Shown here one piece after another: positions 7,032-58,368 of a stretch of 58,368 nt of DNA; the first letter of the stretch is position 1, and every line of letters begins with the position of its first letter. Both the position numbers and the translations under genes were made by a program. The stretch is from the NCBI GenBank assembly GCA_016182015.1, contig JACOYC010000010.1:1-58368 (forward strand), read 5' to 3'. Origin of the DNA: Nanobdellati archaeon (GTDB lineage: Archaea; Nanobdellota; Nanobdellia; UBA10117). The notes beneath the pieces are model-generated. The model ran no database searches and was not told the DNA's origin. It saw nothing but the letters and a program-made list of their open reading frames with translations.

Positions 7032-7096
7032 AGTTATTTTAGAAAAAGTGGGTATTTAAATTTTAATGTTGTGCAGCAGCAAGTTTTAAATAACTT

Positions 7097-7537
7097 ATGT
7101 TCGCTTTGGCTTTGTTGGAGATGGAATTTATCAAACGCATATTGATGGGTGTAAAGACAAGGATACAGCGGGCCACTACCTGGCTCTCACTGTTTAATTC
7201 TGCCATGATATTTTTTCTGTTTCTGTCGCGGCTTAACGATGCTGGCTATAACATCCGCGTAGGCCAGTGGTTTCTTCCGCTTTTGGTTATTGGCGCGCTT
7301 GGCCTTGCGCTTATCGGCTGGATCGAAGACCGAATGGGGTTCTGGCGGCTGGAGCTTAAGATGATAGGGGAGCGCAGTCCTTACTTTAAGGATATTATGC
7401 ACAAGCTTTCAAGAATTGAGAAGAAGCTTGGAATAGAAAGTGAAAACAACATGTCGGTCGTTGGTCATAAGTCGTTAGTTGTTGCGCCAGACGACAAACA
7501 ACAATCAACCCCCGGACAGCAAACAGACATAAAATGA
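7097..7537 (+). CDS. membrane protein, unknown function
   Basis: Two predicted TM helices. ATGA overlap with the next gene. Confidence 0.5.
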   Translation: MFALALLEMEFIKRILMGVKTRIQRATTWLSLFNSAMIFFLFLSRLNDAGYNIRVGQWFLPLLVIGALGLALIGWIEDRMGFWRLELKMIGERSPYFKDIMHKLSRIEKKLGIESENNMSVVGHKSLVVAPDDKQQSTPGQQTDIK

Positions 7538-17959: not shown

Positions 17960-19302
17960 AACTTCAACACCTTTTTTACCTTTTTTAATCCTTTTATCAT
18001 TGCGTTCACATCTTTTTTATAGTTATATATATAAAAGCTGGCCCGGCAGACCGATTCAACGCCAAGCCTTTTCATCAGTGGCATGGCGCACGCGTGGCCG
18101 CTTCGGATGGCAATGCCTTCGCCGTCAAGTATTTGCGCAACATCATGCGGGTGAGCGCCTTTGATGTTGAATGCAATTACGCCGCCCCGCTGTTTTGCAT
18201 CTTTTGACCCGTAAATCTCAATATCTTTTATTTCTGACAATTTTTCCAGCGCGTATTTTGTCAATTCAATCTCGTGCGTATGCACATTTTCCATTCCTAT
18301 ATTTTCTAAATAATCAATCGCTGCGCCGAATGCAATAACGTCTGCGATGTTTGGCGTGCCTGCCTCGAACTTCCAAGGCAAGTCATTAAACTCTGTTTCA
18401 AACTTCCCAACTTTTTTAATCATGTCACCGCCAAACAAAAATGGTTTCATCTCTTTCAGCAGTTCTTCTTTTGCATACAAAACGCCAACGCCAGTAGGAC
18501 CAAGCATTTTGTGCGATGAGAATGCATAAAAATCGCAGTCAAGTTCCAGGACGTTAACTTTTAGGTGCGGGACTGCCTGCGCACCATCAATCAAAATCTT
18601 CGCATCCGGATTTTTTTCTTTAATTATTTTTACTATTTCGCTTATTGGATTAATTGTTCCTAAAACATTTGAAACATGCGTTAATGAAACAAGCTTTGTA
18701 CTCTTGGTGACAGAATTTTCTAACTGTTTCAAGTCCAGCTCGTAATTTTTATTCACATCAACGAACTTTAATTTAATTCCATTTTCTTGGAGCTGCTGCC
18801 AAGGCACAATGTTGGAGTGGTGCTCTATTATTGTAAGAATAATTTCATCGCCAGCCTTCAAATTGTTTCGCGCCCACGAATATGCAACAAGATTTATCGC
18901 TTCTGTTGTGTTGCGGACAAAAATTATTTCTTTCTCAGATTTCGCATTTATGAATTTTGCGACTTTCTTTCTCGTTGATTCGTATTCTTCTGTTGCCTGC
19001 TCACCGAGCGTATGAATGGCACGGTGAATGTTAGAATTATATTTTTCATAATAACTTTTTAGCGCGTCAATCATAACTTTCGGCTTCTGGCTTGTCGCAG
19101 CGCTGTCCAGATAAACTAACCTTTTGCCATTAATTTTTTGTTTTAAAATTGGAAAGTCCTGCCTAATACCCGAGCCGAACAAAGCTCGGCTGGGCGCAGA
19201 AACCAGAGAAAATTCCGCGGAATTTTCTTGGCCAAGAAAAATGCTTCGGCATTTTTCTTTGGAATCCTGCGGGATTTTTATTGCGTTAGAAAAATCTGCC
19301 AT
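17956..19302 (-). CDS. sufS: cysteine desulfurase SufS (class V aminotransferase)
   Basis: IRQDFPIL..., LVYLDSAATSQKP, SSHKMLGPTGVGVLY and RSGHACAMP. The first ~40 codons of the ATG-started ORF run through hairpin repeats; an alternative TTG start exists at 19182. Confidence 0.9.
   Translation of the reverse strand: MADFSNAIKIPQDSKEKCRSIFLGQENSAEFSLVSAPSRALFGSGIRQDFPILKQKINGKRLVYLDSAATSQKPKVMIDALKSYYEKYNSNIHRAIHTLGEQATEEYESTRKKVAKFINAKSEKEIIFVRNTTEAINLVAYSWARNNLKAGDEIILTIIEHHSNIVPWQQLQENGIKLKFVDVNKNYELDLKQLENSVTKSTKLVSLTHVSNVLGTINPISEIVKIIKEKNPDAKILIDGAQAVPHLKVNVLELDCDFYAFSSHKMLGPTGVGVLYAKEELLKEMKPFLFGGDMIKKVGKFETEFNDLPWKFEAGTPNIADVIAFGAAIDYLENIGMENVHTHEIELTKYALEKLSEIKDIEIYGSKDAKQRGGVIAFNIKGAHPHDVAQILDGEGIAIRSGHACAMPLMKRLGVESVCRASFYIYNYKKDVNAMIKGLKKVKKVLKL
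19170..19279. repeat. hairpin-module array B (same family as A)
   Basis: Perfect 22-nt palindrome AGAAAATTCCGCGGAATTTTCT (19207-19228). Also TTGGCCAAG and AGAAAAATGC-TTCG-GCATTTTTCT (19235-19258). The TTTTCTTGGCCAAGAAAA junction is shared with array A. Confidence 0.85.
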
Positions 19303-19303
19303 T

Positions 19304-20776
19304 TTAATTAATTGCGTTTGTCATCTCTAGTTCTATCAAGCGATTGAACTCAATCGCATACTCGAGTGGCAGCTGTTTCGTGAATTCCTGCAAAAAGCCG
19401 GATACTATTAGCGTAGTGGCCTGCTGCTCTGTCAGGCCTCTGCTCATTAAATAAAATAGCTGGTCCTCAGAAACCTTGCCGACTGTAGCTTCATGGCCTG
19501 TCGAGACATCTTTTTCATCGACCTGCAATGCTGGGAATGTGTCGGACCGCGATTTTTCGTCCAGCATTATTGCATCGCAACGCATGTGCGACTTGGAATT
19601 TTTTGCGCCTTTGATAACTTTTACAATCCCTCTGAACGCAGTGACGCCGCTGTCTTTGCTCACGGATTTTGAAAGTATTGTTGAACTCGTATCAGGTGCA
19701 AGATGGTATGCCTTTGCTCCTGTGTCCTGGCACTGGCCAGCTCCTGCAAAAGCAACTGAAATGATATTCGCCTTTGCCCCGCGGCCTGCAAGCAAGACGC
19801 AAGGATATTTCATCGTGATGCAGCTGCCAACATTCGCGTCAAGCCACTCAACATATGCATCCTCATGTGCCTTTGCCCGTTTCGTGACAAGATTGTAGAT
19901 GTTGCTCGCCCAGTTCTGCAACGTTGTGTATCTGATTCTGGAATTTTTGTGCGCGATCACTTCAACAACCGCGGCGTGCAGCGAGTTTGTTGAGTATGAC
20001 GGTGCGGAGCAGCCTTCAATATAATGTACCTCCGCGCCTTCTTCGGCAATTATCAGTGTGCGCTCAAACTGGCCCATGTTTTTTGCGTTGATTCTAAAAT
20101 AAGCTTGGAGGGGCAGCGGGACTTTCACATTTCTTGGCACATAAACAAACGAGCCACCGGACCAGACTGCTGAGTTTAACGCTGCAAATTTATTGTCTGC
20201 GTACGGAATGACGGTGCCGAAATATTTTTTTACAATTTCCGGGTGCTCGCGGAGTGCTGTATCCATGTCGCAGAATATTACGCCGAGCTTTTCCAAATCC
20301 TCGCGGACTTTGTGGTAAACTGTTTCTGAGTCAAACTGCGTGCCGGCCCCTGACAAAAATTTTCTTTCTGCTTCTGGTATGCCGAGCTTCTCAAATGTTT
20401 TTTTAATATTCTCAGGTACATCGTCCCAGCTTGTAGCGTTTTTTGCCTTTGGGCTTTTGTAATACGTTATTTCGTCAAAATTTACGTTGGAAAGATTAGC
20501 GCCCCATTTTGGCATCGGCCTTTGCAGAAAATGCCTGAAGGCCTTTAACCGCAGGTCGAGCATCCAGGCTGGCTCGTTTTTTAGTGCGGAAATCTTTCTT
20601 ACAATTTCCTCGGATATGCCTTTTGGCAGTTCAATATCATAATCCGCTTCCGTAATTTCGGAATATTTGTTCGGATTTATAGAAAAACCGAGTTTATCAT
20701 CATTCAGTTTTTCTATTCCTTCAACTCGTTTGCGAGTTGAAGCTATATCCAAAAACGATGTCTCTGTTTGTGTCAT
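19304..20776 (-). CDS. sufB: Fe-S cluster assembly protein SufB
   Basis: 490 aa. Typical SufB blocks are visible, for example [21 protein letters not shown] and [21 protein letters not shown]. Confidence 0.95.
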
Positions 20777-28117: not shown

Positions 28118-28145
28118 AGCTTGAATTGCCCCTGCGGATTTATAA

Positions 28146-28218
28146 CGTTAACTCGCCTCAAAGGGCGAGTTAACGGAATGGAAAAATCCGCACATCTCAT
28201 GCTTTTGCGGATTTTTTC
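28146..28218. repeat. two hairpin modules in the pdhA/grx divergent intergenic region
   Basis: CGTTAACTCGCC-TCAAAG-GGCGAGTTAACG (12-bp stem), and GGAAAAATCCGCA..TGCGGATTTTTTC, the same stem family as in copies D and E. Confidence 0.8.
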
Positions 28219-28244
28219 ATAAGGTTTGTTTAGAGCTTTGTTTA

Positions 28245-40368: not shown

Positions 40369-40656
40369 TCATGAAATATCGCGGTGTGTTTCGTACATAA
40401 ACGCTGCGTCTTTGTCATGCCTTTTCAGCTCGGTTGTTGTCTTTCTAAAAATGTCCGACGTGTTTACGCAAATTTTTTTCTTTGATTCGGCCTTTACCCA
40501 TTTTGTGATTCTGCCGGCAACAGATTTCGCCACGTTCTCGCAGGCTTTTTTGCTCAGGCGAACAACGAAGCAGGCTGCATAAACTGAGCCATATACTTTT
40601 TTTTCGTCGTACTTTTCTATGCGGCCTTTCCTCTTGACTACGCAGTGTTTCGCCAT
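40369..40656 (-). CDS. ATP-cone domain protein
   Basis: Start at MAKHCVVKRKGRIEKYDEKKVYGSV.... The longer ORF to 40866 is read-through of hairpin repeats. Confidence 0.65.
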   Translation of the reverse strand: MAKHCVVKRKGRIEKYDEKKVYGSVYAACFVVRLSKKACENVAKSVAGRITKWVKAESKKKICVNTSDIFRKTTTELKRHDKDAAFMYETHRDIS

Positions 40657-40680
40657 TTTTTCTCCCAAACCATATTTTAT

Positions 40681-40824
40681 GAAAAAATCCGCAAAACTCC
40701 GCCCTTTAGGGCGCGGGATACGCGGATTTTTCCATTCAGCCAAAATTCGTTTTGGCTGACCAGTCGAACTTTGTTCGAACTGTTCCTCAAAATCGCGGTT
40801 AAGCGAGCAGCGATTTTGAGTTAT
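40681..40824 (-). repeat. mosaic hairpin element, copy D (inverted relative to E/F)
   Basis: Its reverse complement shares ATAACTCAAAATCGCTGCTCGC, GTTCGAACAAAGTTCGACTGGTCAGCCAAAA..TTTTGGCTGAATGGAAAAAT with copy E. The last 4 nt overlap the ccdA stop codon. Confidence 0.85.
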
Positions 40825-41528
40825 ATGAATGTTATTGTTCCGTTTGCTATTAGTATGAGCAGCCAACCTAAAAAGATGAGCAGCACGCCTGACGCGAGGC
40901 GCATCAGCGGCCTGTTACGGTGTTTCCATTTTTTAATTACATGAATTTTTGTGCCAAAATAAGTAAGCATTAATATTGCTATCAGCGGCAATACAAAAAT
41001 AAAGTTGTATAATACCAGAAGGAGGAATGCTGTTAAGTCAAACTGCTGCGAGAGCAGCGCGATTATTGCGAGATATGGCGCGCCGGTACAAGGCAGTTCG
41101 ACGCCGGCCACGAATGCGCCGAGAAATAAAATGCCTGGCAGGGTGATTTTTTTTGTATAATCTGAAATTTTCTTTGACATCTCGGGCGGAATTGAGAGTG
41201 TGAAGCCGCGCCCATACCAAAAATAGTCTTTGATTTCTACCAGGCCTGCAAACACAATTATGGAAGCAACAGCAATCGCCAAATACTCTGACAAATACAG
41301 CGGAATGCGGCTGAAAAAATACACTAAGCCGAGGCCGGCCGCCAGGTATGTTGCGAAAACTGCAGATATATATAAAAATCCGTATGTCAGGAGCTTTTTC
41401 CTTACATGGGAAGCTGTCAAGATCGATACTAATAAAATCAGCACGCCGATTGCGCACGGATTTATTGAGTCAACCGCTGCAGTTATTATTACTGCGCCAA
41501 GCGTTGGAATGGATGCAGCAACTGCCAT
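40821..41528 (-). CDS. ccdA: CcdA/DsbD-family thiol-disulfide electron transporter
   Basis: Six TM helices. Conserved Cys in DSINPCAIGVL and VELPCTGAPYL. Confidence 0.8.
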   Translation of the reverse strand: MAVAASIPTLGAVIITAAVDSINPCAIGVLILLVSILTASHVRKKLLTYGFLYISAVFATYLAAGLGLVYFFSRIPLYLSEYLAIAVASIIVFAGLVEIKDYFWYGRGFTLSIPPEMSKKISDYTKKITLPGILFLGAFVAGVELPCTGAPYLAIIALLSQQFDLTAFLLLVLYNFIFVLPLIAILMLTYFGTKIHVIKKWKHRNRPLMRLASGVLLIFLGWLLILIANGTITFI

Positions 41529-42268
41529 TACGCGCCACCTCTGACTCTCACAACAAGCAGGCCATCTTCGCTGAGCTGTGTCTCTGAAAATACAAATTTT
41601 ATTTTATCTCCCGGAGGCACTGTCGAGTATGGTGAGATTATATAATCCTGCGCGTTTTCTTGCAGCCTGCCATTGACAAAAACATACCACTTTGCAGGCC
41701 TGCCGTTGCACAAATCCCCATTTGTTAATTTTTTGTAGCCGTGCTCCGTAGGCAGGCCGAGCGTGCCATCAGTAAATTCGCCGCCGACTGACTCGAAGTA
41801 CTCGTGCAGGCTGGCCTGCTCCAACTTCAGAAGAACGCCCTCAACATGAATTCTATTATCGCCATGTTCATGCACTGTTGGATCGCCGACAAAATTTTTC
41901 AGGCCTGCCGGCTTGGCAAGCTCATATTTCTGGCCGCACGCAAATATTTCATAGTCTGCATGCCAGTGGACTGGGCCGTGGCTCTCTGACTTAACGTTGA
42001 GGTAGACTGTTGTTGCTGACAGATATGCTGTTGAAATTACAATCGGCACAGATATTATCAAAAATAAAATCTTTTTGTGGCTTTCTTTTAATTTCGTAAG
42101 CGCCAATGACGCAACGATTGCAGCAATAAAAACTGCAGCCGCAAAAATAAGCAATATATTCGGGTCGATTAAATTAAGCTGGCCCCAGACATCTTCTTCT
42201 GTCCCGTGGGCAAGAGCCGACGGCAGCACGGCGGCTAGCAAAAGCAAGAGTACTTTTTTAGTGGCCAT
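41528..42268 (-). CDS. secreted/anchored His-rich domain protein (HWHA...CG...HEHGDNRIHVEG family)
   Basis: Signal peptide plus TM helix. Paralogous to the C-terminal domain of 51552..52217. Overlaps the ccdA start by 1 nt. Confidence 0.6.
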   Translation of the reverse strand: MATKKVLLLLLAAVLPSALAHGTEEDVWGQLNLIDPNILLIFAAAVFIAAIVASLALTKLKESHKKILFLIISVPIVISTAYLSATTVYLNVKSESHGPVHWHADYEIFACGQKYELAKPAGLKNFVGDPTVHEHGDNRIHVEGVLLKLEQASLHEYFESVGGEFTDGTLGLPTEHGYKKLTNGDLCNGRPAKWYVFVNGRLQENAQDYIISPYSTVPPGDKIKFVFSETQLSEDGLLVVRVRGGA

Positions 42269-42472
42269 GTTATTAGCTGGCAGTCTGGGTTTAAAAATTT
42301 TACAGAAGCAGTTTTACCTGCGAATATAACTGCAGGGCCAAAACAGCGAGGAGGGCAAACACAACCAACACACCAAGGCCGGCCGCCAGGGATTTTAATG
42401 CCTTTGACTTAGCAATACCTGCAAACCGCACCATACGTACCTTTGCTTTTCTTCCGGATTTTTCTTTTTCGC

Positions 42473-42664
42473 TTAGCTGCCATTGCCTGCTCCGTTGGGC
42501 TGCATCCTGATCTCCTTAGCCAAATCCTTCACGGTATCATTCCTGCCGGCAAGCACTGCTGAAAAAAGTTTTTTCATCGTGTCATTCTTTAACTGCAGCT
42601 GCTGCCTGGCCAGCTCTTCTTCAGATATTTCCTGCTGGCAATGCGGACATTTAATCGCGGCCAT
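42473..42664 (-). CDS. small protein with single CPHC knuckle
   Basis: 63-aa ORF with no further motif. Confidence 0.35.
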   Translation of the reverse strand: MAAIKCPHCQQEISEEELARQQLQLKNDTMKKLFSAVLAGRNDTVKDLAKEIRMQPNGAGNGS

Positions 42665-42820
42665 TTGCCTCGAATAAAGATGGGTGTTTAAATAGTTTTC
42701 GCGACCGATTAGCTTTTAAACCCACAATAATGCTCTTGCTTAGGTATTAGTAGTAGAAGAGTAGTCGGCAAGCAAGTGACGAGTTCTAAGCCTAATACAC
42801 AATTGAAAGGAGAGTGTAAA

Positions 42821-42982
42821 ATGGCATTCCAGGGAAGAGGCCAAAGAAATTTTGGACCTAGAGAAATGCATCCGGCAAAATGCTCTGAGTGCGGCGCAGA
42901 CTGTGAAGTCCCGTTCGTACCATCAGGCGACAGACCAGTATACTGCCGTGACTGTTTCCAGAAAAGAAAACCAGCACAGTAA
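42821..42982 (+). CDS. CxxC-x17-CxxC zinc-ribbon protein
   Basis: KCSEC-GADCEVPFVPSGDRPVY-CRDC has exactly 17 residues between the two CxxC pairs. A GGAG lies upstream of ATG 42821. Confidence 0.7.
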   Translation: MAFQGRGQRNFGPREMHPAKCSECGADCEVPFVPSGDRPVYCRDCFQKRKPAQ

Positions 42983-43004
42983 GAAAAAGTAAGCTAAACT
43001 AGTT

Positions 43005-43451
43005 TTAATGTTTTTTTCTTTTAAATCTTAATTTTGCAGCATTAAAAACACCCATGGGTGTTGGCTGAAAATATAGGCTGCGCCTATAACGCTCAGCAAG
43101 CCAGCGGACACCATCTACCGGCAGTTTTCCAGTTTGCTCTTTGATAACAGCCAACAGACTAGCGTAAAAATTAGGTTCTAGTGAGTATAGATTAAGCCTG
43201 CTGTCCAAAGCTGCAGGAGATTTTCTGAAAAGCGCATCCCGGTCGCGCGCCGTGCCAGCATACACATAGTGGCTGCTGTTAAACGCTATATCAAACAACT
43301 CTGCAACTGTGTTGGCAAGCACCCTGGACTGTGTCGGCGCATTATTCCGCGTCACGAGAGCAAGCGCGGCATAGCATACTGTGCGTTCAAGGTTTCTATT
43401 CATAAGTCTGGATAAGTGTCGAAAACTTTTAAAACCTATCTGCCCAAGCAA
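43005..43451 (-). CDS. hypothetical protein
   Basis: 148-aa ORF. Confidence 0.4.
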   Translation of the reverse strand: MLGQIGFKSFRHLSRLMNRNLERTVCYAALALVTRNNAPTQSRVLANTVAELFDIAFNSSHYVYAGTARDRDALFRKSPAALDSRLNLYSLEPNFYASLLAVIKEQTGKLPVDGVRWLAERYRRSLYFQPTPMGVFNAAKLRFKRKKH

Positions 43452-43624
43452 ACACGTGCGAATTCGCGACCTTGGACTATTTGTAGCGATTTATTTTTAA
43501 TTTTCATTTGTTTATTTATTCAATCAGTTTATTTCCGCTGCGACGAGACAAAAAGTTAAACCTCGCCAAAGGTTACAAACATTTAAACGCTGCAATTGCA
43601 TGCACTTTTTTGGGTTGGAAGTAA

Positions 43625-44881
43625 ATGCAGAAACTAAAGAGAAGCCTTGGCCTGTTTGAAACCACTTTTTATGGTGTTGGCGTGATAGTGGGCGCAGGCA
43701 TTTACGCACTGATAGGAAAGGCAGCCGGCCTGTCAGGCAACGCAGTCTGGCTCTCATTTATTTTCGGCGCAGTCATCGCTGCCTTTACCGGGCTAAGCTA
43801 TGCGGAGCTAAGCTCGATGTTCCCAAAGGCCGGCGGTGAATATGTTTACGCAGAAAAAGCGTTTAATCGCAGGCTGGCCTTCCTGCTTGGCTGGCTTATT
43901 GTCGTTGGCGGAGTCATAGCCGCAGCAACAATTTCTCTCGGGTTTGCAGGCTACTTCTCGGCCTTGTTTGGCACGCCATTAATACCAATAGCAATCGCAA
44001 TCATTCTCGTTTTATCATTGATAAATTTCTGGGGCATAAAAGAATCCGCCATCGCAAATATTATTGCAACTGTCGTCGAGGTTGGCGGCTTAATAATAAT
44101 ATTAGTTCTCGGCTTAAAATATCTGGGAAGAGTAAATTATTTTGAGTTCACTCCGCAGCTCGGCTTTCCTGGCACTTTGAGCGCGGCCGCACTTATATTT
44201 TTTGCATATCTTGGGTTTGAAGATATCGTGCGCCTGTCAGAAGAGACCAAAAATCCTAAGAAGATAATTCCGCAGGCACTTATACTTTCGGTTATAATTT
44301 CAACTATTTTATATATAGCAGTAGCTGTTGCGGCTGTCTCTGTTGTCGGCTGGCATGCCCTTTCGCAATCAGATGCTCCGCTGGCATTAGTTGCGCAAAC
44401 CGCCCTTGGCCAGAAAGCATTTTTCATTCTGGCAGTAGTAGCCTTGTTCTCTACATTTAATACAATTCTAGTAACATTAATCGCAACATCGCGAATGCTT
44501 TACGGGATGTCTGAGGAGCACGGCCTGCCAAAAATATTTTGTGCAGTCGACAAAAAGCGTTACACGCCGTGGTTTTCAATTATCATTACTTGTTTAGCAG
44601 CCATTACGTTTACATTGCTTGGAAAGATAGAGCTTGTGGCTGGCCTGACAGACTTCGCGCTTTTTGTGACGTTTGCTCTTGTTAATGCGGCGCTCATCTG
44701 GCTCAGGCATAAGCTGCCGAATGCGCCGCGGCCGTTCAGAACCTGGGCCCCGCTAGCCTGGCTCGGCATAATATTCAGCATCGCGATGCTTCTGTACTTA
44801 GATAAAATAGTGATTGCTGGCGGTGTCGCGATGGTGGTGGCTGGCCTGCTGGTGTATGAAGCAATTAAAAAAAGAATGTAA
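43625..44881 (+). CDS. APC-family amino acid permease
   Basis: 418 aa with about 12 TM helices and an N-terminal GVGVIVGAGIYALIG motif. Confidence 0.85.
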   Translation: MQKLKRSLGLFETTFYGVGVIVGAGIYALIGKAAGLSGNAVWLSFIFGAVIAAFTGLSYAELSSMFPKAGGEYVYAEKAFNRRLAFLLGWLIVVGGVIAAATISLGFAGYFSALFGTPLIPIAIAIILVLSLINFWGIKESAIANIIATVVEVGGLIIILVLGLKYLGRVNYFEFTPQLGFPGTLSAAALIFFAYLGFEDIVRLSEETKNPKKIIPQALILSVIISTILYIAVAVAAVSVVGWHALSQSDAPLALVAQTALGQKAFFILAVVALFSTFNTILVTLIATSRMLYGMSEEHGLPKIFCAVDKKRYTPWFSIIITCLAAITFTLLGKIELVAGLTDFALFVTFALVNAALIWLRHKLPNAPRPFRTWAPLAWLGIIFSIAMLLYLDKIVIAGGVAMVVAGLLVYEAIKKRM

Positions 44882-44887
44882 TCAAAC

Positions 44888-45078
44888 ATAACTCAAAATC
44901 GCTGCTCGCACCTTATCCACGGACTAATGTCGAAAAATATTTTAATTTTTCGAGCACCTCGAAAATGCTTACGCATTTTCGTTGAGTTCGAACAAAGTTC
45001 GACTGGTCAGCCAAAACTCATTTTGGCTGAATGGAAAAATGCGGCTTAAAAGCCGGGGTTTTAGACCCGCATTTTTCC
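44888..45078 (+). repeat. mosaic hairpin element, copy E (five nested or serial hairpins)
   Basis: Bases 44888-44986 are identical to 58270-58368. The remainder aligns with the reverse complement of copy D. Confidence 0.9.
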
Positions 45079-45116
45079 ATAATAAACTTAATAAGGCAAT
45101 TTAGATAAAACCAATC

Positions 45117-47183
45117 ATGGCTACTGATCCAGTATGCGGAATGAATGTAAATGAAAAAACCTCAACAATAACAAAAGTTTCTGATGGTATAAAATATTAT
45201 TTCTGCTCATCTAATTGTCTGGTTACTTTTGAAGCACCAGAAAGAGAGTTTAAGAATTTAAAAACCACTTTGATTATTTCTGGTGTTTTGACTGTAATTG
45301 TTCTGGCGCTGGCGTTTGTCCCACACCAGCACTTTTTGTATGAGCACTACGTCCTGCTCGCCCTAGCAACAGTTGTGCAGTTTTACGGCGGCTGGCGATA
45401 CTACCGCGGCGCGTTTGATGCTGCAAAAGCAAAGACTGCAAACATGGACACGCTAATTGCGATCGGCACTAGCGCAGCTTGGGGCTACAGCGCGGCAGCG
45501 GTTTTCCTGCCAAATGTTTTAACTGGTGGATTATATTTTGATACATCAACTGCAATTATCACATTAATTTTGCTTGGAAAATTCTTTGAAGAGATTGCTA
45601 AGGGGCGCGCATCGCTTGCGCTGAAAGAACTTTTGGACCTTGCGCCGAAAACTGCAATCGTGATACGGGATGGACAAGACGTTGAGATTCCAATTTCTGA
45701 AATTAAAGTTGGGGATGTCTGCATAATCAAACCGGGGGAGAAAATTCCCGCAGATGGAATGATTATGTCTGGCCACTCATCTATTGATGAATCCCTCGTG
45801 ACTGGAGAGTCGCTGCCTGTTTCAAAATCAATAGGTGATCATGTGATAGGAAGCACGATAAACAAGTCTGGCCTGCTAAAAATCAAAGCAACAAAGGTCG
45901 GCAAGGACACTGTTCTTGCGCAGATTATCGATCTTGTGAGTAAGGCGCAGCTTTCAAAAGTGCCAGTACAAAAACTAGCGGATCAAATTTCATCTTACTT
46001 TGTTCCTGTTGTGATAATGATTGCGATTCTTTCTAGCGCCATTTGGATTTATGCCGGACAGGATTATATTTTTGCGATGACTATCGCTATCGCTGTCCTG
46101 ATAATTGCCTGCCCGTGTGCCCTTGGCTTGGCCACGCCGACCGCGCTTCTGCTTGGAACGAGCAAAGGCGCAGAGAACGGAATTTTAATCAGAAATGGCG
46201 AGGCGCTGGAACGTTCATCAAAAGTTGACACTGTTGTTTTTGATAAAACAGGAACCTTGACTGAGGGCAAGCCCAAGGTGACTGGCCTGCATTTTCTGCA
46301 GATTGAGAAGCCACTGTTCCTGAAGTACGCTGCAATTGCGGAGAAAGGCTCAGAGCACCCGCTGGCAAGAGCGATTGTTGATTATGCAAACGTCCGTGTA
46401 GAAAAAATAAAAGAAGCCGCAGCATATGAAACAATTCCCGGAAAAGGCATAAAAGCAAAATACCTGAACGGCACAATTCTTGTTGGCAACCGTGCTTTAA
46501 TGAACGACGAAAACATTTTGCTCGGCGATCACAGCATCGGCATACATAACCTTGAACTCCGGGGCGAGACTATAGTGATTGTTGCGCACAACAAAAAATT
46601 CATTGGCGCGATCTCAATTGCGGATGTTGTAAAACAAAATGCAAAAAAAGCTGTTGACTTACTTGGCCAAAAAGGAATAGAAGTTTATATGATTACTGGA
46701 GACAACGAGCGCGTGGCTGAGCACATTGCTGGCCAGCTTGGGATCACAAAAATATTCGCGCGTGTTCTTCCGCAGGACAAGGAGAAGAAAGTTGCTTTGT
46801 TGCAGAAAGAAGGAAAGATTGTCGCTGCAGTCGGTGACGGAATAAACGACGCGCCGATGCTTGCAAAGGCAGATGTTGGGATTGCGCTTGGCTCTGGCAC
46901 AGATGTTGCCAAGGAAACCGGCGGAATTGTTTTGATTAAGAATGATCCGCTGGATGTTGTTAAATCATTGAAGCTTGGCAGATATTCTATTGGTAAAATT
47001 AAACAAAATCTTTTCTGGGCGTTCGCCTATAACGTAGCCGCAATCCCGATCGCGGCCGGCATCTTGTATCCGTTCTTCGGTTTCCTGCTATCGCCGACAA
47101 TCGCAGCGTTTGCGATGGCGTTTAGTTCTGTGACTGTGGTGGGGAATTCGCTGTTGATGAAAAGGTTTGAGCTAAATTCTTAA
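45117..47183 (+). CDS. copA: copper-translocating P1B-type ATPase with N-terminal TRASH/YHS domain
   Basis: DPVCGMNV...YYFCSSNC (TRASH), TGES, CPC (IIACPCALG), DKTGTLT and GDGINDAP. Confidence 0.95.
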
Positions 47184-58269: not shown

Positions 58270-58368
58270 ATAACTCAAAATCGCTGCTCGCACCTTATCC
58301 ACGGACTAATGTCGAAAAATATTTTAATTTTTCGAGCACCTCGAAAATGCTTACGCATTTTCGTTGAG
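58270..58368 (+). repeat. mosaic hairpin element, copy F (truncated by window end)
   Basis: 99/99 nt identical to 44888-44986. Confidence 0.9.

Follow-up and report, generated by a model that had tools for sequence, protein, structure and literature searches.

What is the group of nested hairpins that stands between an amino-acid permease gene and a gene for a copA-like P-type ATPase in the genome of a Nanobdellati archaeon (assembly GCA_016182015.1), and why does its pairing appear to be kept when its sequence changes? The group, called copy E (44888-45082, plus strand), lies on contig JACOYC010000010.1, whose 58,368 nucleotides, taken whole, are the window analysed here; related hairpins stand at two further places in it, copy D (40677-40824, minus strand) and copy F (58270-58368, plus strand). 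A sequence-only reading of the window had described the three as a mosaic family and had taken the pairing-keeping stem changes as a sign that the folded form, RNA or single-stranded DNA, is under selection. In our opinion D, E and F belong to a family, confined to one clade, of small selfish DNA elements that form hairpins and are mobile but non-autonomous, and we would put the probability of this at roughly 0.7. The window is contig C22 of a genome (G000) of 0.76 Mb in 31 contigs that is 88% complete; its other contigs are cited by number. It was compared with a congener (G002), with a member of another genus whose copA is 86% identical (G007), with an order-level set of 39 genomes (G000 and 38 others) and with a class-level set of 401. 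The genomes compared are incomplete metagenome-assembled genomes (MAGs), in which a missing gene is weak evidence of absence.

The unit, its spread and its sites

The grammar of the family was derived by folding all copies and by listing every T-type hairpin in the genome. The base unit, about 55-95 bp long, differs at its two ends. From 5' to 3' it runs C, hairpin A (CTNNAACNCGCC-loop-GGCGNGTTNNAG), GGA, hairpin T and AA. Hairpin T consists of ATGGAAAAA, a variable core and TTTTTTCAT. Its outer pairs are constant, ATGGAAAA(A) on one arm and (T)TTTTTCAT on the other, the fourth being G.T in 26 of 30 copies, while the G+C core is different in nearly every copy. The unit sits immediately 3' of a host (A)TAA, and its own end is CATAA, so that most copies have ATAA on both sides.

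Such units form a multi-copy, modular family that is restricted to one clade. A pattern search of the genome gives 22 T hairpins, and a scan with a covariance model of the whole A-T unit (R1), of the kind that the sequence-only reading had proposed, gives 26 matches, D and E being recovered via their C and T hairpins. The same model finds 2-27 copies in 14 of the 38 other genomes of the order and none in the other 24. The exact hairpin T pattern is present in 10 of the 39 order genomes and in 13 of the 401 class genomes, against 0-1 matches for the reversed control; the three class-level matches outside the order are single in each genome and look like chance. In a pattern scan of a genome collection unrelated bacteria give single matches only, at chance level, and among the matches listed it is only MAGs of Woesearchaeota and Nanoarchaeota that have more than one. 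Seven pattern matches in viral contigs come with neither hairpin A nor a paired stem and look like chance as well. Several of the element-carrying relatives derive from groundwater, and genomes of this lineage are very small (0.5-0.8 Mb). The sequence-only reading had not recognised the family from any archaeal repeat class described so far. Rfam gives no match, either at the gathering score for the whole window or at E <= 1 for 40500-45300. A tRNA and tmRNA scan of the window found none, and the literature searched holds no description of the family, its grammar or its TAA target.

The copies are optional at exact sites. At the orthologous junction in G007 copy E is absent, TAATCAAATATAA being followed directly by TAAACTTAATAAG, versus ATAA-E-ATAA-TAAACTT here; D is absent there too, and the orthologous intergenic spacer is about 16 nt. 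Six more copies (C3:18888-18971, C14:12515-12568, C24:6790-7095, C30:99618-99916, C25:6392-6475 and C19:9285-9375) are missing at the same base in the congener, which brings the sites filled here and empty in a relative to eight, two of them in G007 and six in G002. The congener in turn holds copies that this genome does not have, and only two of the sites tested are filled in both. An empty site has a single ATAA (in one case ACAA) and a filled site two, and the left flank is ATAA in 17 of 23 copies. Since the right ATAA lies partly within stem T, and since five copies have other left flanks (ACGA, ATAG, AAAA, ATGA, TTAA), it is probable that the 3' ATAA comes with the element and that insertion takes place after a TAA-like site.

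A reading frame runs on through five of 24 copies, and all five have the sense orientation. The hosts are SufB, an RMKL-type methyltransferase, a DTW protein, a GT2 glycosyltransferase and one unknown open reading frame (ORF). Pfam domains span these inserts, and the orthologues in G002 are without them. The unit in sufB (20677-20746, minus strand, within the ORF at 19304-20776 of the same strand) adds about 23 residues near the N-terminus and has no counterpart in the congener.

Two loci deserve mention beside these sites. Right after the element in C24, at positions 7096-7122, both host flanks recur in inverted form, the left one over 9 nt (TAGCTGAAT/ATTCAGCTA) and the right one over 8 nt; G002 has neither inverted copy, and this looks like the product of templated fold-back synthesis. 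As a general rule for insertion, fold-back was rejected: inverted copies of host flanks occur at one of 20 sites, this one, and are at chance level elsewhere. At C19:8700-9500 a HAM1/RdgB-like pyrophosphatase gene, intact in the congener, is decayed: its frame is shifted, about 300 nt are missing from its interior, and a reversed A-T unit adds a stop.

Pairing that is kept, and at which level

The computed folds of E and D are much better than those of shuffled sequence. RNA folds of E and D score z = -8.0 and z = -8.7 against shuffles, the DNA fold of E scores z = -9.3, and none of 200 shuffles was as good. The claim that stem changes keep the pairing also stands, and it extends far beyond the three copies on which it was based. 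In 30 short T hairpins from ten genomes 96.7% of cells are paired, versus about 50% with the partner slid, and there are 50 two-sided changed cells versus 18.6 +/- 2.8 after shuffling (0/500). Among 17 whole A-T units, 14 of 24 pairs show two-sided changes and 95.4% of cells are paired versus 77.6% when shuffled, with 0/500 shuffles reaching the score. Across 51 copies the variable core forms 3.1 bp on average, versus 1.0 with shuffled partners (0/2000), and the lengths of the A-run and the T-run are equal in 50 of them.

What such covariation means is another matter. The variable pairs are almost purely Watson-Crick: at four of them two-sided changes number 13, 12, 16 and 9, versus 0, 0, 0 and 2 one-sided (G-U) changes. 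Loops and cores, moreover, are turned around. The T hairpins at C13:6478-6536 and C19:9286-9344 share their outer stems, and their 31-nt cores are mutual reverse complements with one mismatch; at C3:29303-29352 the whole T hairpin is flipped. In two-hairpin cassettes nested within some copies, change is concentrated in the loops. Among five copies of the cassette G1-G2 all five differences fall within the 4-nt loop of G2, and the loop of hairpin C varies (CTCA, CGAA, TGGG) among B-C cassettes that are otherwise near-identical; some of the variant loops are one change short of being mutual reverse complements. It is known that template switching can yield perfect stems, multi-base changes that look compensatory, and loop inversions without selection on RNA (PMC8794818). 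Because of the flips, the gain and loss at exact sites, the in-frame copies and the purely Watson-Crick pairs, we prefer a DNA-level to an RNA-level reading. Covariation by itself is no evidence of a functional RNA, and here it points to DNA folding. Of the original argument, then, the covariation remains (and it is strong), whereas selection on a folded RNA finds no support in the same observations.

Two processes would keep the arms paired on the mobile-element reading. Only copies that fold might be able to propagate, and the arms could correct each other by template switching within the hairpin, which would change both at once.

A proposed enzyme in trans and the rival explanations

On the reading we favour, an enzyme supplied in trans would recognise the conserved ends on folded single-stranded DNA and join the element after TAA, a step that would resemble those of HUH/IS200-type or repetitive extragenic palindrome (REP) systems. 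The nested look itself is an observation: further two-hairpin cassettes (B-C, G1-G2 and others) occupy the loops, or the single-stranded linker, of elements that came earlier. The design of A-run, G+C stem and T-run places oligo-T on both strands and so might make a bidirectional terminator, as a side effect and not as the reason for the family's existence.

Several observations weigh against this reading. Searches of this genome found no Y1 HUH transposase (PF01797), no TnpB (PF07282), and no DDE_Tnp_1 (PF01609) or DDE_Tnp_4 (PF13359), the DDE transposases of the IS4/IS5 and Harbinger types; the four are absent too from the genomes of family f1 and from G018, which hold the most copies, G008 excepted. 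There are no terminal inverted repeats: the left end is C-TTGAACTCGCC or C-TCAAAATCGC, the right end is ...TTTTTTCATAA, and their reverse complements are unlike. Some copies appear to be old and retained, which hints at constraint after insertion. The copy at 28142-28222 and its orthologue in the congener are identical at 79 of 81 positions versus 82-89% in the flanks, and the A-T unit at C7:9489-9545, with 14 nt of left flank, is near-identical to G007:C5:9046-9102 across two genera, with one loop difference. Finally, when perfect hairpins with stems of 8 bp or longer are counted, tandem and convergent spacers have 2.8-3.0 per kb, divergent ones 1.0 and coding sequence 0.3. This threefold excess at gene 3' junctions over divergent spacers is explained no less well by a selected 3'-end function than by a TAA target, and so is the orientation of the intergenic units, which mostly (about 10:4) follow the upstream gene.

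These last points also favour regarding the modules as primarily RNA-level devices, bidirectional terminators or protective 3'-untranslated-region (3'-UTR) hairpins that were duplicated and are kept by selection on RNA folding. Runs of T5-T6 follow the stems on both strands, 97 of the 385 perfect hairpins combine a 5' arm containing an A-run with a 3' arm containing a T-run, and the constant G.T pair would be a G.U wobble in a forward transcript. However, five ORFs, SufB among them, tolerate an A-T unit whose sense strand contains a T6 run, and the permease-copA and ccdA-ATP-cone junctions work in G007 without any element. Three of the four copies that are reversed relative to transcription would give an A.C mismatch in place of G.U, and the orientation of this pair relative to transcription carries no consistent signal. 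Inversions of cores and loops would alter any RNA sequence motif, G-U intermediates are nearly absent from the variable pairs, and a terminator has no need of conserved ATAAC, GGAATGG and CATAA ends. We therefore consider a primary role in RNA unlikely. The placement at gene ends, as first described, is correct (E follows the permease stop and D the stop of the ccdA/DsbD-like gene), and copies there may plausibly act as bidirectional terminators or 3'-end hairpins. We rank this effect as secondary because the junctions work without the element in relatives and because the unit is tolerated in essential genes. Intrinsic termination in archaea is generally ascribed to oligo-T alone.

The features that speak for a mobile element have also to be weighed as products of a known transposase or of no transposase at all. 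The family could derive from an IS200/IS605 (HUH Y1) or REP-associated tyrosine transposase (RAYT) system whose transposase is missing from the incomplete MAGs or is carried by a plasmid or virus that was not binned. Such a descent would account for the two dissimilar ends with their subterminal hairpins and for insertion 3' of one particular short sequence. It would also fit the right ATAA, which belongs to the element, its AT being paired in stem T; with the five differing left flanks this suggests that the repeat may not be a strict target duplication. Moreover, the element-bearing G008 has a complete IS200/IS605 element with TnpA and TnpB (L227, on G008:C74), the only one found in the family-level clade. 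Yet PF01797 occurs in 2 of the 39 order genomes only and is absent from this genome and from 13 of 14 element-bearing relatives, PF07282 is absent from 7 of 8 genomes tested, the viral matches look like chance, and the ends of the G008 element are dissimilar to hairpins A and T. The G008 element was accordingly rejected as a parent, and a descent of this kind seems to us doubtful. Elsewhere in the order weak covariance-model matches coincide with some DDE genes.

It is also conceivable, though we would give it little credence, that no element-specific transposase is needed. A host replication or repair activity, with a structure-specific nuclease or template switching at the fork as candidates, would then copy two-hairpin cassettes into single-stranded TAA sites (spacers, loops, linkers and reading frames) on folded DNA, keep the stems paired and flip the loops. 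To go further and let hairpins be made and maintained in place, by template switching of the quasi-palindrome correction kind and with no transposition, would turn the similarity between loci into convergent sequence bias. Stems and seemingly compensatory changes can arise in one step by that route, loop and core inversions are observed, and inverted flanks exist in C24. Nevertheless, as a sole cause this is very improbable: unlinked loci share stretches of 99-190 nt at 98-100% identity, the non-palindromic ends ATAAC, GGAATGG and CATAA are invariant in at least 10 genomes, these two facts together rule out independent origin, and the inverted flanks are confined to that one site. As to an artefact of assembly or binning, with chimeric joins or collapsed reads in a MAG, the 99-nt identity at the window's end is indeed a k-mer artefact of the contig break. 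The same family with the same ends is nevertheless found in MAGs assembled independently in different studies, and copies lie within continuous reading frames, which leaves such an origin extremely unlikely.

Where does the family, read as mobile DNA, stand among known systems? In kind it belongs with small palindromic non-autonomous mobile elements. It works like an element of IS200/IS605 or REP type, but no transposase has been found that would make it a member of either. With REPs, bacterial interspersed mosaic elements (BIMEs) and REPIN-RAYT systems it has in common short palindromic non-coding units in many copies at gene 3' ends, mosaics, and stems that vary with pairing kept. REPs, however, are palindromes of 20-40 bp defined by a tetranucleotide, GTAG or CGTC, that is conserved at one of their ends (PMC3733652). 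The present family lacks that tag, its conserved ends being ATAAC, GGAATGGAAAA and TTTTTCATAA; further differences are that no RAYT/Y1 gene exists in this genome, that the ends are unlike, that some copies lie in ORFs and that the host is an archaeon.

Haloarchaeal PATEs and cyanobacterial Nezha elements are non-autonomous derivatives of IS200/IS605 with asymmetric ends and subterminal hairpins. The likeness to them lies in hairpin A on the left, hairpin T on the right and insertion after (A)TAA with apparently no true target duplication, which would imply a single-stranded folded intermediate; unlike them, the family has no TnpA or TnpB with matching ends in any genome examined. Classical MITEs (miniature transposable elements with inverted repeats), such as Correia and the Tourist-like elements with their TAA target, are likewise small non-autonomous inserts in many copies at a TAA-type site, but here terminal inverted repeats are missing, and so is an IS4/IS5 or Harbinger DDE transposase in this genome, the f1 genomes and G018. 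In a bulk census a Woesearchaeal genome was credited with 105 MITEs per Mb (PMC11602168).

Rickettsia palindromic elements, found in a genome that is reduced, lie in frame within protein-coding genes, and no transposase is known for them (as summarised in PMC10969869). The present family resembles them in its five in-frame copies, which leave the genes undisrupted, reduced genome and lack of a transposase found; no sequence relation is known, and it differs in size, in its two-hairpin grammar, in its TAA target, in extensive nesting and in its archaeal host. The closest behaviour seems to be that of mitochondrial elements, namely the GC clusters of yeast, which are palindromic and mobile (PMC4478555), and the double-hairpin elements of Allomyces (Paquin et al. 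2000, cited in PMC7218506). They too are optional between close relatives, have short flanking repeats and loops that change faster than stems, merge and shuffle into composites, and have no known enzyme. They differ in residing in an organelle and not on an archaeal chromosome; the sequences are unrelated, and here the ends are strongly conserved while the stem cores are hypervariable.

If the reading as mobile DNA is true, genomes of 0.5-0.8 Mb tolerate some 20-30 copies of a self-spreading hairpin element at stop codons, in other copies and in essential genes, and they offer natural pairs of empty and filled sites for studying movement without a recognisable transposase. Should the transposase-free version be correct, very small genomes would have a new way of moving DNA and of giving rise to hairpins. 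The family is also a concrete warning that covariation in repeats can mirror hairpin dynamics at the DNA level and not a conserved RNA. For the annotation of DPANN genomes the elements matter because they break assemblies at the k-mer length, lengthen proteins by 20-30 residues and mimic non-coding RNA genes.

Copies E, D and F and their nested cassettes

The base A-T unit is best represented in the window by 28142-28222 (plus strand; A at 28147-28174, T at 28178-28220), the best covariance-model match at 80.3 bits, which runs opposite to the direction of the flanking genes. Copy D is an intact composite with A at 40786-40820, B at 40761-40782, C at 40736-40759 and T at 40679-40735. It lies between the stop of a DsbD/CcdA-like gene (gene 40821-41528, stop 40821-40823, within the left ATAA) and an ATP-cone gene starting at 40665. 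Copy E stands between the permease gene (43625-44881, stop 44879-44881) and the promoter and start of the copA-like ATPase gene, which has a YHS domain (45117-47183), and it is bordered by ATAA at 44888-44891 and 45079-45082. Two side observations concern this neighbourhood. In G002 and G009 a small YHS/TRASH-type copper-binding gene lies between the permease gene and copA, which is not so in G000 and G007; and a promoter-like AAACTTAAT(A/T)AAG box, kept ahead of these genes, includes the ATAA insertion site.

The nesting described as Russian dolls is right for the family, and it is clearest in pairs of empty and filled loops outside the window (C11 with C30, and C3 with C24). In C11 CCACGGACT-AA-AGTCCGTGG is an empty hairpin, and its counterpart in C30 holds two CGAAAA hairpins; this is the cassette G1-G2, placed after TAA in the loop, which is filled also in C24, C27, E and F. 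The loop of hairpin A has 4 nt at C3:29225 (CTTGAACTCGCC-ATTT-AGGCGAGTTCAAG) and about 170 nt of extra hairpins in C24. D and E hold a second two-hairpin cassette, B-C, within the A-T linker, as GGAA/...CTGAA/TGG; the linker is unbroken (GGAA/TGG) in base units such as 28142-28222.

Copies of the family trade modules with one another and undergo deletions; E is composite, and it has also lost material. Its segment 44892-44929, mostly unpaired in computed folds, consists of the orphan 5' arms of three nested stems (CTCAAAATCGC; GCACC; CCACGGACT), as alignment to the copies in C30, C24 and C11 that kept the partners indicates. Then come G1 (TCGAAAAATATTTTAATTTTTCGA, 44930-44953) and G2 (TCGAAAATGC-TTAC-GCATTTTCG, 44959-44981), a deletion junction TTGAG/TTCGAAC with microhomology AGT (44982-44993; compared with GATTTTGAGGAACAGTTCGAAC in D and GTTGAGTCCGTGG in C30), B (44985-45004) and C (TCAGCCAAAA-CTCA-TTTTGGCTGA, 45007-45030), and finally hairpin T (ATGGAAAAA-TGCGG...CCGCA-TTTTTCCAT, with a GGGTTTTAGACCC-type core, 45031-45080); the covariance-model match covers 45006-45082.

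This layout corrects one point of the sequence-only reading, in which E had an outer AACTCAA/TTGAGTT stem enclosing modules that D lacks. The true outer stem of D is CTCAAAATCGC/GCGATTTTGAG, with 11 bp and a 13-nt loop, and E retains only its 5' arm. Judged against the fuller copies (C30:99612-99760, C24:6781-7010 and C11:21341-21492), in which the three nested stems enclose the G1-G2 cassette, E is without their closing arms and passes from ...CGTTGAG directly to the TTCGAAC of cassette B. Because its TTGAG is part of a different module and not the 3' arm of the outer stem, the stem named in E is no homologue of D's; on these alignments the AACTCAA/TTGAGTT pairing is a by-product of a deletion of about 50 nt. 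The other comparisons hold. E matches the reverse complement of D at 95% over 59 nt (44985-45043 with 40723-40781) and at 22 of 22 positions (44888-44909 with 40803-40824), and the long stem is GGAAAAATGCGG/CCGCATTTTTCC in E and GGAAAAATCCGC/GCGGATTTTTTC in D and at 28178-28220.

The identity of 44888-44986 with copy F, 99 of 99 positions, is likewise exact. Since about 15 contig ends of this assembly bear 99-nt repeats, its length is a k-mer overlap of the assembler (a k=99 graph broken inside a repeat) and not the size of a unit. F is the left end of a composite (5' arm of A, nested arms, G1 and G2), recognised by its match to E and ended by the contig end. The window stops inside it at ...GTTGAG, and contig C28 starts with GAGGAACAGTTCGAAC, the end of a 3' arm of A, followed by B, C and T. 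Judging by this order of modules, C28:1-111 is probably the continuation of F, with a gap of about 45 nt of nested stem arms. If the two contigs are neighbours, E would be a deleted copy of this type of locus. Recent copying is evident in any case: besides its identity with F, the left part of E matches C30 at 98%, and its right half matches the start of C28 (8-105) at 98 of 99 positions, or 99%.

Some smaller observations concern hairpins of related design. Another two-hairpin cassette (AGAGAAAAACTC..GAGTTTTTCT with CCAAGAAAAATGC..GCATTTTTCT) occurs in the window at 2733-2914 and 19207-19245, at C24:6880-6960 and at C11:21380-21450; it has the A-run, G+C core and T-run design of hairpin T and is found both free and nested in hairpin A. 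A reading of the reverse strand (ATGAAAAAA...) as a small peptide was ruled out, stem length and frame varying between copies. A near-palindromic GG(G)TTTTAAACC(C) turns up repeatedly, both among the T cores of one subfamily and in hairpins of other kinds (E 45055-45067; C3:18950, C25:6400 and C11:21300; also G007, G009, G010 and G018). A second subfamily of T cores (D, C24, C13, G002, G007 and G009) has conserved unpaired TTCATCCC ... GGAGTTTT flanking a covarying CGCGC/GCGCG hairpin.

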